Source: Octopus vulgaris (lineage: Eukaryota). Taken from it: a DNA stretch of 64,000 bases. The DNA is taken from assembly GCA_951406725.2 (NCBI GenBank), contig OX597833.1, positions 992,001 through 1,056,000 on the forward strand. Direction: 5' to 3'. The notes under the pieces were generated by a model that saw nothing but the letters and a program-made list of their open reading frames with translations, ran no database searches and was not told the origin of the DNA. The position numbers and the translations under genes were made by a program. Positions 25,951-48,955 of the stretch are shown in pieces; the first letter of the stretch is position 1, and every line of letters begins with the position of its first letter.

Positions 25951-26283
25951 CTTTGAGAAACCTTGAATTCGACTCGATTGCATTCGATATCTCACATGTA
26001 TAAGATGCTACATCTCTGCAATCCAAGTTATTTTTCCAACAATGCAATTCACCTCTAGTCGCTGCAACTCGCGGTAAGATGCAACCGAAATCTTTCGCGG
26101 CATAGATGACTTCAAAAACTCCCACAACTTCGTGGAAACCAATATCAACAACGACTTCATCGTTTCGTCTGAGTCTGAAGAAACCTAAGTTGTTGGCTAC
26201 AAAGTTACATGTAATTTCCATTCTGGTTAGTTCTTCGTCCCCAAATCCATCGAAAGGCGTTAGGCTTGTCATTTCAACACGAT
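25951..26283 (-). CDS. Ig-cluster gene 2, exon 2 (V-like Ig domain)
   Basis: 333 nt, AG/GT bounded, same five cysteines as gene 1, CRDVASYTC motif. Confidence 0.88.
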
Positions 26284-26515
26284 CTAGGAGTGAGGAACAA
26301 ATCAATGAATGAATACACGAAAAATGGGACGGAAACAATTTCTCAAAGACAGATTTAATTATCGCTTCTACTTTAGACGCGAAACCCGAAAGTTATCTGA
26401 TCAAGTATCATAAAAGCATGAAACTATAAGTAGCTCTTTCGGTTTGTGTATTCAATCGATATTTTTCTCTCACTGGTCGGAACACTTCTTTGTTGATTCT
26501 ACCTCGAATGGGTCT

Positions 26516-26822
26516 TTCTATCTATCTATCTATCTATCTATCTATCTATCTATCTATCTATCTATCTATCTATCTATCTATCTATCTATCTATCTATCTA
26601 TCTATCTATCTATCAGTCTGTCTGTCTGTCTGTCTGTCTGTCTATCTATCTATCTATCTATCTATCTATCTATCTATCTATCTATCTATCTATCTATCTA
26701 TCAGTCTGTCTGTCTGTCTGTCTGTCTGTCTGTCTGTCTGTCTATCTATCTATCTATCTATCTATCTATCTATCTATCTATCTATCTATCTATCTGTCTG
26801 TCTGTCTATCTAACTATCTATA
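26516..26822. repeat. (TCTA)n/(TCTG)n microsatellite
   Basis: direct reading; paralogous arrays at 48775-49921 and 62417-63526 are split by a LINE. Confidence 0.95.
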
Positions 26823-28102
26823 TGTATATATATATACCATATTTGATCCTGGTACAATGTAGACTTATATAATTTGTAGAGGGTGAGTAACAACGAACTC
26901 TTTGCACATATGACGTCATCTGCGGGCGTCGCCATTTGTCGACCAAATTGTGATTTCCGTCAAAATGTTCACCCAACTTTACGTTGTTTCAATTGGTTTT
27001 TAACTAGCCAATCAGTAATCGTTGTACAACGTGACAACAATGTGGCTTTAAGTATGATTTATAGATTGCCTTATTTAAATAATCCTGCTTCCGTCGCTTA
27101 CAACAAATTACTATTCAGCATTCCGGCTATTTGGGACACAAGTGACTGAAAAATCACTGTTTTTCTGCATCATAAGGGGCTAAATTGCTTTAGCAAGCGG
27201 TTGCTCAGTGAATCCTTGCTACTGACGACTCTCAAGGAAGCAAAACGGAGCATTTAGCAATGTCACATCTTCTTCTGGACGATGTTCGTCTGCTACTGGT
27301 TTTATTTCAGTATAATTTTAGCACTGCAAGTGAGACAGAGTATCTAGGGAAGAAATGACGGCTAGGGCTGCTGCGGTAAATAGGAAATTACTTCGTGAGA
27401 TAAACCAAGAAATTGAGATTTCTGCGTCATGCAGTAGTTCCTTCGTTATGTAATGAAGAAAGAAGGCCTGAAAAATTAGGAGGTGAACTTGAAAGACTGA
27501 AGGGAAATGAAGCAGCGGAATAATTAGGATGGCATGGATGTCGAGCTTGACTTCCTGGTTGGAAGAAAGAGGCATTAAACATCAGGAAGTGAAAATGTTA
27601 CAGAAAACAAAGAAGAGAAAATGACGGCAAGAAGTGACCGCTTACGAACATGGCGTCTAAAGAGGAATACGTCATACGTCCATCAGATAATTTTTCTGGA
27701 GACGAATACTACAGTCTTTGAACGACATATCTGCATTAAGTATGATATACAGATTGCTATTGAAACATGGTTTCTGATTTCAGTAAACGGGAAAGAATCT
27801 TTAGAGGAGGTGGTTGATTATTACCACCGATACTATTGCTAGGCAAATTTAATTTCGGTGAGATTTGAACAGTGAAATGTCAGAAAACCGTCACCCTCAC
27901 TTGCTTCCAAGGGGTTTAAGTTACACACCCACACACACATGCACTCCCCCATATAGTAAGAGTAAGAGAGTGACATAGAAAGAACAAAGAAAAGAGAGTA
28001 TACGTGCGAGAGAGAGAGAGAGAGAGAGAGTTGTTGAAAGAGGTGAGAGAAAGGAATGAAAAGCTTGAAGAAATATATTTGTTGTTTTTAATCTGAACTT
28101 AC

Positions 28103-28181
28103 TGACTGACATGCATGGAAGAATCATCACGGATATAATCATCATCATCATCATCATCATCGTCGTCGTCGTCGTCACCAT
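28103..28181 (-). CDS. Ig-cluster gene 2, exon 1 (signal peptide)
   Basis: MVTTTTTMMMMMMMIISVMILPCMSV, 79 nt, donor A|GTAAGT. Confidence 0.8.
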
Positions 28182-28447
28182 GTTGGTTGGTAGAGAAAAC
28201 GAGCGCCGACTGCCTCGAACAAAAGCATTGTAACCACGTGACATATTTGATCCAGGTCAAATATGAATTAGAGAAAATTTGGCAATAGTTTTTCGTGTCG
28301 AAATGTGATGAAACTAATTAATGATAAAATGAATTAGTTAATTAATGAAAAAGTGCAAAATAAGCAAAACAGAAAAATAATAATAATCATAAAAAAAAGT
28401 CTCATCGGAAATGAGAAAAATATTTAAAAATTAGCTTTTATGAAGGA

Positions 28448-45790: not shown

Positions 45791-46105
45791 TTGCACCAAT
45801 GTCGTTCATTTCTTTTGCAATTATGGTGCCAAATGCCGAACATGCAATAATCGTTTCACCGCTGTCTTTGTCAGTTACCGTGTGTTGATATAGCGACTGT
45901 ACTGGAATGCACGGATCGTCAGTTTTCGGAAGTGGTACTTTCTTGTCTGTTATCTGTGGTTTAGCGTTTTTATGTGCTACAGTCCATCTAAAGGTGACAG
46001 ATTTGTTAGCATGTGATGAAACATATGCTAAACATCTGAAGGTAATCTCCTTCTCCTCCTTCTGAGTTGGATTAATAAGATCAAGACTTTTGACAAAAGA
46101 TTTCA
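45791..46105 (-). CDS. Ig-cluster gene 3, exon 3 (second Ig domain)
   Basis: 315 nt, acceptor TTTTCTCTACAG, donor A|GTAAGC. Confidence 0.88.
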
Positions 46106-47069
46106 CTGTAGAGAAAATATATATTTTATTGTGAATAAGATTCAAAATAACATACAAGATGGATGCTTTGACACGAATTGCGATGTTGATATAAAACGAA
46201 AAATTTGAACATTAATCAAAATAGATGACATGTTACTATGCAATATGTTTACGGTTTCCAGGGCTTCAACTAATCTTTGTTATAGCTATAGCAACACTAG
46301 AATAGGGGTGTAACTGGGGGAGCGAATGTAGGGATTCTTTGGACGCTCTAGTGCATATTGACCGATCCACCAAAGCTAATAAATCGGATATTCTTGGGTA
46401 GACCAAAGTGATAAGCACTGTTCATTGATCGGCATGAATATCCCTTTTGATCTTATATTGGGGCAAATGAATTAGAGAAGCTCATTGAAATCGAAAATAA
46501 TGTGGAATCTCAATGCAGCTACAATAACAGGGATTGCGGGAGAACTAGAAATGGTCAAAAAAGGAACTCAAAACTATTTGCGAATGACTCCTGGCTTACC
46601 ATCCATGCAAGAAGGGAAAATGTCTAACAATTGCATGGATATATTCAATAAATTTATATTAATGGGTTTGGACCAATTTCAGGAAAACATGAGCAGAATC
46701 CGGTAGCGAACCCGTGTGCGTAAAATGGCGAGATTTTCCGCTTTGGGGCAGATTTCGTCAAATTGATATCACGACGCAAAATGCCTGAATTTTGCTTGAG
46801 AAATAAAATCGCTTTATCAAATCAAAACCTGAAGGGCTGGGGAATTAAAAGAACGAATTGAAATAAGTTTTAGCAAATCAAAACAATTCGCATTGGAATG
46901 AAGAATTAGCAAATGCTACTTAGATTATCGTTAATACGCTGTCTGTTTGTATTCATGAAACATTTTTCGTCAAATTTCGGCATTTCTCGTCAAATTGATA
47001 TCACGATGACTAGTGCGAAAATTACCGAAATTTTACGATTTGGGAAAATCGATGAGAATACATCTTTTT

Positions 47070-47882
47070 TAGTTTCTGCTCAAAGCTGCGGCCATGCTGA
47101 TGCACCGCCGTTTTGCTACACTGATATTACTAAGAGCCTTCTCTTAGATGTGGCACTTGGTGAAGAATGGAGTTTGATATAGCTACCCTCATTTGCACCT
47201 CTTGCCGTGAGGTAGGTTCATCTGGGACTCTCGACAGAAAGAGGTCCAGCTTTGATTTAAAACCTCCTACATCTACTTTGTGCAAGTTCCTCAGACTCTT
47301 TGGGAGAATATTAAAAAGCTGTGGGCCCTTGAAAACCAGGCTGTTGCAGAAGCTGGTCCTGAAGCGTGATGGCATTGCTGGGATCTTTGGCAATATGCCG
47401 TGTCGCCCCGTTCTGGCATTGGTGTAGCTTTCAATGCCAAAATTTGGCAAAATTCCTTCCAGGATCTTCCAGCTATATATTACTGCATACCCCTCCCGTC
47501 AATTAGTCTACAAGTATTTTCTCCCCTTGTCTTTAATGACTATGTCTGGTCGATTAGCCTGGATCGTTCTGTCGGTGTTGACTGGAAAATCTCAGAGGAT
47601 CCTGACATTTTTACATTCAACGATTGGCTCAGGATGATGTCAATACCAGTAGACAGGGGTGCTAATTTTGTAGTGTTTACATATTTTCCGATGTAAATAC
47701 TGTCCAACCCTATCGTGGTAATTTTTGTATTTGTTTGGTGTGAAAAGAAGACACCCCGAGACGAGCGATGTCTTCTGTCGAATAGCGTTATATTCTTGTA
47801 GTTTTTGGAACGCAAACTTTGATCTTCGGCCGCTAATATGAAACCCCCAGTCTGCTTTCAGTCCTGAGTTTCTCAGCCACTT
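47070..47882 (-). mobile_element. CR1-group LINE 3' end joined to an R4-like fragment, in intron 2 of gene 3
   Basis: PNFGIESYTNARTGRH...DLFLSRVPDEPT matches the 43370-43680 LINE end; WLRNSGLK R4-like piece; duplicated at about 60637-61447. Confidence 0.78.
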
Positions 47883-48276
47883 ATCATCATCATCATCATT
47901 ATTATTATTATTATTATTATTATTATTATTATTATTATTATTATTATTATTATTATTATTATTATTATTATTATTATTATTATTTTATTATTATTATTAT
48001 TATTATTATTATTATTATTATTATTATTATTATTATTATTATTATTGTTGTTATTATTATTATTATTATTGTCATTGTTATTATTATTATTATTATTATT
48101 TATTATTATTATTATTATTACTATTATTGTTGCTGTTGTTGTCGTTATTATTATTGTTGTTGTTATTATTATTATTAGTATTGGTAGTAGTAGTAGTAGT
48201 AGTAGTAGTAGTGTTACTTGTATTAGTAGTAATAGTGTTACTATTTTTTTTTTTCTTAAGATGAAACAAAATTAAC

Positions 48277-48609
48277 CTGTTAGCATCCTTGAATTAGACC
48301 TCTTTGCATCCGATATCTCACACGTATAAGATCCTACATCACCGCAATCTAGATTTGCTTTCCAGCATTTTAATACTGCATTAATCTTTCTCGATTGCGG
48401 CATGTTGCAGTAGTAACCTTTCAGGTCACGAATGACTTTAAAGACTCCTTCACCAGCGTTGAAACCAATATCAACAACGACTTCATTGTTACGCCTGAGT
48501 CTGAAGAATGATAAGTCTTCTGCTTGAACACGACATGTTATATCCATTTGAGTTGGTCCCTCTTCCCCAAATCCTTCGAATGGTTTTAGGCTTGTCATTT
48601 CAACACGAT
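48277..48609 (-). CDS. Ig-cluster gene 3, exon 2 (V-like Ig domain)
   Basis: 333 nt, AG/GT bounded, CGDVGSYTC contains the canonical D-x-G-x-Y-x-C motif. Confidence 0.88.
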
Positions 48610-48955
48610 CTATGAGTGAGGAACAAATCAATGAATGAATACACGAAAAATGGGACGGAAAAATTACTCAAAGACAGATTTAATTATCGCTTCTACTTTA
48701 GACGCGAAACTCGAAAGTTATCTGATCAAGTATCATAAAAGCATGAAACTATAAGTAGCTCTTTCGGTTGTGACTGTCTGTCTGTCTATCTATCTATCTA
48801 TCTATCTATCTATCTATCTATCTATCTATCTATCTATCTATCTATCTATCTATCTATCTATCTATCTATCTATCTATCTATCTATCTATCTATCTATCTA
48901 TCTATCTATCTATCTATCTATCTATCTATCTATCTATCTATTTATCTATCTATCT

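Follow-up and report, generated by a model that had tools for sequence, protein, structure and literature searches.

How can two neighbouring genes differ widely in an exon and hardly at all in the intron beside it? In a tandem array of Octopus vulgaris, the first immunoglobulin (Ig1) domains of the genes U2 and U3 differ at 44 of 110 residues with no indel (89 of 330 coding bases), whereas 160 bp of adjoining intron differ by three substitutions and one 1-bp indel. The original prediction had reported both counts, which were reproduced here, and had offered two explanations: positive selection on the Ig domains, or gene conversion that homogenises the introns and leaves the exons untouched.

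Exon and intron divergence in the U array

The window, that is the whole stretch of 64,000 nucleotides that was analysed (contig OX597833.1, positions 992,001–1,056,000), holds genes 1 to 4, here called U1–U4, of an array of at least seven genes. Their architecture comprises a signal peptide, a V-like Ig domain, a C-like Ig domain and a likely GPI tail (Table 1). The U2 Ig1 domain matches that of O. sinensis LOC118766832 residue for residue, and the tail-exon junction of U2 is also present in O. sinensis P0004. The tail of U6 is changed. A candidate mucin-like stalk exon in intron 3, based on a 12-base repeat, was rejected: its reading frames disagree among paralogs, and the Octopus models P0001, P0002 and P0004 splice Ig2 straight to the tail exon.

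Table 1. Positions of array features in the window.
Feature	Position	Strand	Remarks
U2 signal-peptide exon (first coding)	28103..28244	-	N-terminus of P0004 (O. sinensis) matches
U2 Ig1 exon, V-like domain, phase 1-1	25951..26283	-	open frame, AG/GT ends
U2 intron 1 3′ end, homogenised tract	26284..26443	-	vs U7 extends to ~26504
Dispersed-repeat fragment within U2 tract	26397..26505	.	repeat matches; very high depth
U2 intron 2	23560..25950	-	old; mostly not alignable to U3
U2 Ig2 exon, C-like domain	23236..23559	-	6/107 residues off O. sinensis ortholog
U2 tail exon	22276..22370	-	small residues then hydrophobic end; putatively GPI-signal-like
U3 signal-peptide exon	50778..50898	-	
U3 Ig1 exon	48277..48609	-	
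U3 counterpart of homogenised tract	48610..48768	-	
U3 Ig2 exon	45791..46105	-	
U3 tail exon	45078..45196	-	1-bp deletion vs U1/U2; altered, still hydrophobic end
U1 whole gene	9086..16312	-	without young intron tract
U1 exons	signal 16174-16312, Ig1 13335-13667, Ig2 10145-10465, tail 9086-9180	-	
U4	58652..62251	-	signal exon just outside window
U4 Ig1	61919-62251	-	identical to U3 Ig1
U4 Ig2	59362-59672	-	5-bp insertion; frame stops at residue 229
Orphan signal-peptide exon, U-array subfamily	2514..2640	-	beside assembly gap (N run 1819-1918)

In Ig1 of U2 and U3, dS is 0.477 and dN 0.297, and the divergence of the adjacent intron is 0.019, so that silent divergence in the exon is 25 times that of the intron. 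The intron count (3/159) differs strongly both from that of the synonymous sites (26/75, Fisher p 7e-12) and from that of the four-fold sites (8/28, p 1e-5). Since selection on residues cannot alone raise silent divergence, the U2/U3 contrast favours the conversion reading, and the contrast between exon and intron is not equivalent to faster exon evolution. That the Ig exons diverge faster than their flanking introns is true with respect to a single flank, and silent sites contribute to it no less than replacement sites. The description of tail exons and upstream blocks as near-identical was overstated: outside the tract, the U2/U3 blocks are 5–22% diverged, as measured on local alignments that are biased to the best-matching bases. 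Differences amount to 20/247 (8%) in the 5′UTR and signal exon, 7/56 in the first bases of intron 1, 27/498 (5%) in intron 3, 5/94 in the tail exon and 8/115 in the 3′UTR. Over the final 200 bases of intron 2, 42/188 positions differ (22%), as much as in the exons; only about 390 of the 2391 bases of this intron can be aligned, and the middle of intron 1 gave no alignment.

Mosaic relatives and the case for conversion

Along the gene, the closest pair of paralogs switches four times. It is U2 and U3 over the final 160 bases of intron 1 (1.9%). For Ig1 and the late part of intron 2 it is U3 and U7 (10.5% and 5.7%), where intron 3 begins U2 and U7 (0/35), and for the later part of intron 3 together with the tail U1 and U7 (3.3% and 1/95). 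Between species, at the protein level, the Ig exons are most alike in orthologs and the tail is most alike in paralogs: U7 differs from O. sinensis P0001 at 1/110 and 0/113 residues of the two Ig domains and at 5/30 of the tail, of which only 1/30 differs between U7 and U1. The pattern recurs in other pairs, as in L045/L046 (Ig1 dS 0.225, flanks 9/296 and 4/297) and in Ig2 of U3 and U6 (20/306; upstream flank 7/600, downstream flank 14/594), and in several independent pairs the tract ends coincide with the boundary of an Ig exon or lie slightly within it. Moreover, silent differences adjoin replacement differences (Ig1 of four paralogs, p 0.014; Ig2 of U2/U3, p 0.003), a clustering that is significant in only three of six comparisons (p 0.003–0.12) and that clustered mutation could explain.

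The gap between dS and intron divergence together with the mosaic relatives supports the second explanation, homogenisation by gene conversion. We consider it fairly probable that U2 and U3 are old tandem paralogs whose flanks were likely re-homogenised by conversion and whose Ig differences were kept, probably by selection. The homogenising mechanism would be conversion or unequal crossing over, by which the near-identical short intron was likely copied recently between U2 and U3, and selection would act as a filter that removes conversions erasing the binding specificity of a copy. Against such a filter speaks intron 2, whose age matches that of the exons, so that a single neutral swap of the block from Ig1 through intron 2 to Ig2 also explains U2/U3.

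An alternative is a neutral mosaic, in which unequal crossing over and conversion shuffle blocks among the tandem paralogs, the Ig block of U2/U3 just happens to be old, and some 60% of Ig1 sites are free to drift with no selection for difference. Several observations agree with it: under model M1a, which fits Ig1, 62% of sites have omega 1, intron 2 has diverged like the exons, and the frameshift of U4 and altered tail of U6 suggest loose constraint in young copies. However, the repeated placement of tract ends at the Ig exons and the rejection of neutrality for Ig2 and for a sister subfamily, described below, argue against it, and we regard it as unlikely.

Selection on the Ig domains and the young intron tract

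The codon models were run with our own implementation on four to six sequences; those of Ig1 exclude U4–U6, which are 0–1 base from U3, and those of Ig2 exclude U4 for its frameshift. For Ig1 of the array, no selected class was found (M1a/M2a p 0.91, M7/M8 p 0.86, M8a/M8 p 0.33), pairwise omega ranged from 0.55 to 0.75, and dS exceeded dN in all 14 pairs between different paralog types. These values lend no support to positive selection on Ig1 as the source of the contrast, and dS at or above dN with no sites above 1 is the very outcome that the original prediction had set against its selection reading. With selection simulated on 20% of sites, the test detected 9 of 14 cases when omega was 3 and 13 of 14 when it was 5; given this power, strong sustained selection on Ig1 of the U array is unlikely.

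The broader claim of positive selection on the Ig domains fared differently elsewhere, being borne out for Ig2 of the array and for Ig1 of the sister subfamily. In Ig2, the M1a/M2a comparison gave p 0.011 (0.02–0.03 after gap trimming), and none of 75 null simulations with conversion attained the four-paralog statistic. In the sister subfamily (44 Mb, same contig), Ig1 showed a dN/dS of 4.3 (M2a p 7e-8; L052, with a broken Ig1, and L057 excluded), and the observed statistic of 32.9 compares with a maximum of 6.5 in 29 null simulations; in Ig2 of that subfamily, 0 of 21 pairs were significant. Omega lies above 1 in most pairs of the remaining subfamilies, and outside sister-subfamily Ig1 only two pairs reach P<0.05. 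U2 and U3 differ at 13 of the 17 sites homologous to those selected in the sister subfamily vs 30 of 91 others (p 0.001), an overlap that may merely mark tolerant surface loops.

Could ongoing diversifying selection on Ig1, in the style of allorecognition or gamete-recognition genes, nevertheless drive the contrast in recent duplicates? The 44 differences are concentrated in loops (DE 7/8, C′C″ 3/4, BC 3/5) and strands are quiet (C 0/6, C′ 1/9, F 0/6); moreover, omega can be masked when conversion carries silent sites with it. Yet besides the excess of dS and the negative site tests, the O. sinensis ortholog is identical in U2 Ig1 (0/110), and contigs of four of four sequencing runs, which drop rare variants, differ from U2 Ig1 by 0–2 bases over the covered parts. 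This driver of the contrast is thus largely refuted and, in our estimate, improbable.

Rapid divergence of orthologs between sister species is a trait of gamete-recognition proteins of the lysin or bindin type, and this hallmark was not found in Ig1 of U2 or U7 (0/110 and 1/110 vs O. sinensis); for Ig2 the values are 6/107 and 0/113. Extreme polymorphism of the N-terminal domain, the Alr hallmark, was looked for in U2 only and not found there, and the allorecognition or gamete-recognition label has no support for this gene. An MHC-like nature is at odds with the predicted model, in which two beta-sandwiches stand between a signal helix and a tail helix with no peptide-binding platform. The Alr1/Alr2 genes of Hydractinia resemble the array as tandem Ig-fold genes of an invertebrate with one domain per exon and conversion-driven exon shuffling (PMC8282982). 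For Alr2, a transmembrane protein, 183 protein variants are described in one population (PMC8282982); in contrast, the samples seen show almost no variation in U2 Ig1, and U2 has a GPI-like tail.

The intron tract itself is a young island. It differs from U2 at 3/159 positions in U3, 7/160 in U7 and 14/71 (20%) in U1, and matches of 95–98% are confined to U3–U7. About one third of it is a dispersed-repeat fragment, for which 40 further matches at 82–92% were scored out of 663 candidates; the repeat-derived part differs at 0/47 positions between U2 and U3 and 5/108 between U2 and U7, and dispersed copies are 8–18% off. That it is a splicing or regulatory element kept by purifying selection is very improbable: it adjoins the splice acceptor and collapses to one contig (126–171 bases, 1–4 differences) in four of four runs, but U1 is 20% off there, the repeat part is identical in U2 and U3, unlike in dispersed copies, and other young blocks with other partner pairs lie along the gene.

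An octopod Ig family and comparable systems

The predicted structure (pLDDT 82.7) has two all-beta domains, and residues 45–158 of the model align with VH domains over 100–103 residues (rmsd 2.2–2.5 A, Z 11.2–11.9); its atlas neighbours are Ig clusters. The model thus places the proteins in the immunoglobulin superfamily, with a predicted beta-sandwich and B–F disulfide, and the V domain carries extra cysteines. Pfam assigned no Ig family to any of six exon translations and gave two weak unrelated matches below cut-off. The best PDB sequence matches were Fab light chains (E 0.001), with no CEACAM among the 60 of 77 shown, and the 20 of 37 library matches that were looked up included no CEACAM and no named Dpr or IgLON. 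By eye, U1, U2 and U7 end in small residues, a spacer and a hydrophobic tail that lacks a cytoplasmic part, a GPI-signal-like pattern; GPI anchoring with surface display is likely. A homodimer prediction for the ectodomain of the U2 ortholog scored 0.04 without alignment, which counts neither for nor against. The octopod family has at least 41 Ig1 exons; automatic exon calling missed 12 tblastn matches (three of them Ig1 of U4–U6, resolved by hand), and an intronless copy was skipped. The named close relatives that were looked up are all "uncharacterized" or "hypothetical" octopod proteins, and our literature search found no publication on their locus ids or on the topic. The main text of a skin-mucus proteome names no such protein, and its supplement may still list members (PMC11431876); in the accessible part of a review on invertebrate IgSF, "octopus" and "cephalopod" are absent (PMC11999971).

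As to function, there is about an even chance that the genes form a germline repertoire of recognition receptors which would bind a changing, probably microbial ligand with the distal loops of the V domain. More tentatively, octopods may possess their own germline V–C Ig repertoire of more than 40 genes, in which conversion would keep promoter, signal and anchor interchangeable and selection would lock or drive the binding loops. Under this tentative reading, the constant C–C′–F face of the array would serve to contact a common signalling partner, e.g. transmembrane members of the family, leaving recognition of microbes or self to the distal loops; if true, cephalopods would have in this repertoire a counterpart of CEACAM or paired-receptor clusters. 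The importance of the locus lies in the family, which is large and fast-turning with measured positive selection. Cephalopods have no antibodies, and the family offers concrete candidates for the diversification of recognition; paralogs with old, fixed, differing loops can be tested directly for distinct ligands.

Short, GPI-anchored proteins with two to three Ig domains, expanded and possibly serving as a cell-identity code, are found in Drosophila Dpr/DIP and vertebrate IgLON. These are conserved families, and the rapid turnover and positive selection of the octopus family are unlike theirs.

The evolutionary pattern is already known from primate opsins and CEACAM32 and represents no new phenomenon, but a clear case in which a contrast between exon and intron misleads about selection. 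In primate opsins, introns are closer between paralogs and exons between orthologs, which was interpreted there as selection limiting conversion. The opsins comprise two genes with a narrow peak at known functional sites, whereas the octopus array has at least seven genes and a divergence plateau that spans two exons and the intervening intron. Bovine CEACAM32 resembles the array in that the genes stand in tandem and have leader, IgV-like and IgC-like exons, and in its average N-domain dN/dS (0.65 vs 0.62 in the array) (PMC7042247). The diversified CEACAM32 sites map to the CFG face or its vicinity (PMC7042247), whereas the octopus array shows hardly any change in C, C′ and F and varies in the distal loops. 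CEACAM32 belongs to a vertebrate family to which the octopus genes gave no sequence match among those inspected; by analogy they may work like CEACAM/PSG, and we do not assign them to that family. The trait common to opsins and CEACAM32, a non-coding flank far closer than the synonymous sites of the exon, is present in the octopus array.

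Age of the Ig1 exons and of their flanks

The original prediction compared the V-like Ig1 domains of U2 and U3, two genes of the tandem array, and its counts were reproduced: the domains align without a gap and show 44 changes in 110 residues (89 in 330 bases), and the 160 adjoining intron bases differ by three substitutions and one 1-base indel. The near-identity that it extended to other blocks was overstated, with differences of 8% in the 5′ block, 5% in both intron 3 and the tail exon and 7% in the 3′UTR. The alignable end of intron 2 diverges by 22%, the same level as the exons; the greater part of that intron cannot be aligned, nor can the central part of intron 1.

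Intron 2 shares the age of the exons, and a single neutral block swap could therefore account for U2 and U3. As an explanation of the array we nevertheless consider a neutral mosaic unlikely, and we infer that selection is what spares the Ig exons from conversion. Exon sparing recurs, which we count in favour of selection as a filter: at two other family loci, L045 and L046, Ig1 has a dS of 0.225 while the flanks differ by 3% and 1.3%, and U3 and U6, which are young copies, differ at 20 of 306 bases in the C-like Ig2 (5 silent, 15 replacement), compared with 7 of 600 and 14 of 594 beside it and 0 of 333 in Ig1. In the reading that we regard as probable, old duplicates would have gained different distal loops and kept them since, and tandem neighbours would go on exchanging sequence; these exchanges would survive in the promoter, signal exon, intron ends and anchor exon, those overwriting Ig specificity being mostly lost.

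Positive selection on Ig1, as originally proposed, was not borne out. Synonymous divergence between U2 and U3 (0.477) exceeds replacement divergence (0.297; omega 0.62), and omega is 0.55–0.75 in all 14 pairs that join different paralog types. The high silent divergence does not stem from the way in which pathways are counted, since 8 of 28 four-fold sites also differ. Codon models, run with our own code on few sequences (here U1, U2, U3 and U7), placed 38% of sites near omega 0.06 and 62% near 1, and adding a selected class brought no gain (M1a/M2a p 0.91, M7/M8 p 0.86, M8a/M8 p 0.33); when 20% of sites were simulated under selection, they were detected in 9 of 14 runs for omega 3 and in 13 of 14 for omega 5. 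Ongoing selection on Ig1 is therefore very unlikely. A dS above dN without a selected class is the outcome that the prediction itself had named as refuting selection on Ig1: the Ig1 exon is old and the adjoining intron tract young.

The alternative offered with the prediction, homogenisation of introns by conversion that spares the exons, gained support. The nearest pair shifts along the gene, from U2–U3 in the final 160 bases of intron 1 to U3–U7 through Ig1 and intron 2, U2–U7 at the start of intron 3 and U1–U7 towards the end of intron 3 and in the tail. Of 223 Ig residues, one separates U7 from the O. sinensis protein P0001, whereas their tails show 5 changes in 30 residues; between the tails of U7 and U1 there is 1 in 30. 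A dispersed-repeat fragment makes up about one third of the tract; in it U2 and U3 differ at 0 of 47 positions, and it is 82–92% like the 40 other copies listed. Constraint on the tract is likewise very unlikely as the source of its similarity, since U1 diverges by 20% in the alignable part. Nor is the tract an assembly artefact, since four of four public runs give it as one contig (1–4 differences) at greater depth than the contigs of the U2 exons. Spared Ig exons with converted flanks match the pattern given for opsins (PMC3924837) and CEACAM32 (PMC7042247); the pattern itself is already known. Within Ig1, the C′ strand is base-identical in U1, U2, U3 and U7, silent sites included (runs of 26–31 bases; p 0.01–0.06 per pair), possibly through micro-conversion inside the exon.

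Selection on the Ig domains

Silent differences cluster beside replacement ones in three of six comparisons (p 0.003–0.03; p 0.05–0.12 in the others); we count this, and the following results on Ig2 and on a sister subfamily, in favour of selection as the filter. Ig2 of this array has an overall omega of about 1.1, and a class of selected sites is supported (p 0.011), also after trimming of gaps (p 0.02 and 0.03) and among four old paralogs (p 0.007), whose statistic was reached by none of 75 simulations under a null model with conversion tracts. It is Ig2, not Ig1, that is now changing here: U2 and its O. sinensis ortholog differ at 6/107 in Ig2 and at 0/110 in Ig1, and among U3–U6, Ig2 differs at up to 20 of 306 bases and Ig1 at 0–1 of 333.

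In a sister subfamily, six intact Ig1 exons have a dS of 0–0.049, about equal to the divergence of their own introns (3.2–3.5%), and a dN of 0.028–0.175. Omega is 4.3 (M2a p 7e-8; observed 32.9, null maximum 6.5 in 29 simulations), and variable sites by codon position number 28, 27 and 9. Of the 17 positions homologous to those selected there, 13 differ between U2 and U3, as against 30 of 91 others (p 0.001); these positions fall mostly in the BC, C′C″, DE and FG regions, and strands C, C′ and F hardly vary within the array. This overlap could, however, arise from loop tolerance alone, which weighs against selection as the filter. The locus would contribute an older stage, with Ig1 specificity fixed, change shifting to Ig2 and flanks converted.

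Polymorphism, assembly and neighbourhood

Comparison with MHC-like, allorecognition and gamete-recognition loci had also been suggested; these labels are not supported for U2. In Ig1, U2 shows no difference from its O. sinensis ortholog and U7 a single residue, unlike gamete-recognition proteins. Contigs of four runs (four organism labels), which drop rare variants, show 0–2 differences in U2 Ig1 where covered, unlike Alr2, for which PMC8282982 gives 183 variants within one population. The AlphaFold2 model of the U2 ortholog (pLDDT 82.7) has two beta-sandwiches and lacks an MHC platform; the first sandwich superposes on whole antibody VH domains (rmsd 2.2–2.5 Å), and the top Foldseek matches are Fab and TCR chains. 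Runs X2 and X5 also yield a 332-base contig at U2 Ig1 with 60 differences and two gaps, and all four runs a 460–468-base contig that fits there piecewise; such contigs may represent paralogs that the assembly lacks.

Beside an assembly gap lies a subfamily signal-peptide exon with no Ig exons after it. Since Ig1 of the O. sinensis paralog P0005 has no match above 64% in this assembly, a missing gene may lie in the gap. Along U3–U6 the Ig2 types alternate (U3 like U5, U4 like U6) with a spacing of 27.3 kb and about 0.3–2.5% difference outside Ig2, reflecting either the recent duplication of a gene pair or the tandem assembly of two haplotypes; U5/U6 could be the second haplotype of U3/U4, which leaves the U2–U3 comparison unaffected. 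Long frames between genes, with an inverted duplication among them, are presumably reverse-transcriptase and endonuclease pieces of retrotransposons.

Positions of the features discussed (within the window unless a contig or locus is named)
Feature	Position	Remark
U2 Ig1 exon	25951-26283	minus strand
U2 intron tract	26284-26443	minus strand
U3 Ig1 exon	48277-48609	minus strand
U3 intron tract	48610-48768	minus strand
C′ strand	26134-26163	Ig1 codons about 41-50
Ig2 exons	23236-23559, 45791-46105	
Intron 3 repeat	22577-22766, 45381-45592	
Altered tail exons	45196, 58767; U5 and U6 beyond the window	
U3-U6	44.7-62.4 kb and G000:C20:1056001-1084000	
Additional run contigs	25956-26285	
Lone signal-peptide exon	2514-2640	
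Assembly gap	1819-1918	N run
Long frames	7787-8581, 38976-40227, 41756-43681	
Inverted duplication	38665-39271 / 40004-40599	
Sister subfamily	C20 44.00-44.20 Mb	
L077 intronless copy	3514-4401	in G000:C1:165117001-165125000
L067 Ig2 exons	1644-1940, 5660-5956	in L067

Gene architecture, family and putative function

Four minus-strand genes (U1–U4) lie in tandem in the window and three more (U5–U7) within the next 46 kb. Each has signal-peptide, Ig1 (333 bases), Ig2 (306–342 bases) and short tail exons joined in phase 1 throughout, and the junctions agree with named protein models of O. sinensis and O. bimaculoides and with an intronless family copy on contig C1. Judged by eye, the tail exon looks like a GPI signal. 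Small deletions give U3–U5 a different hydrophobic end and U6 an 81-residue end, and the O. sinensis isoform P0003 terminates before the tail; some forms may be released. Intron 3 contains an imperfect tandem repeat of 12 bases, which reads as a Ser/Thr/Gln-rich frame only in U1 and U7 and might be used as an optional stalk exon.

Genome-wide, at least 41 Ig1 and at least 36 Ig2 matches are spread over three C20 clusters and a single site on C1. A library search gave 37 matches, and the 20 looked up comprised 16 from Octopus, one from Argonauta, one unnamed and two weak vertebrate ones. The databases give the family no name, and listings from locus-id and topic searches held no paper on it. 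Some members (P0009, P0020) have a transmembrane segment and cytoplasmic tail. Our best guess at a function, with about an even chance of being right, is recognition of a changing, probably microbial, ligand; a cell-identity code of the Dpr or IgLON type ranks below it as a more doubtful candidate. The intronless copy of P0009 at L077 is probably a retrocopy; if so, its parent would be expressed in the germline. At L067, one Ig1 exon is followed by two near-identical Ig2 exons with five replacement and no silent differences.
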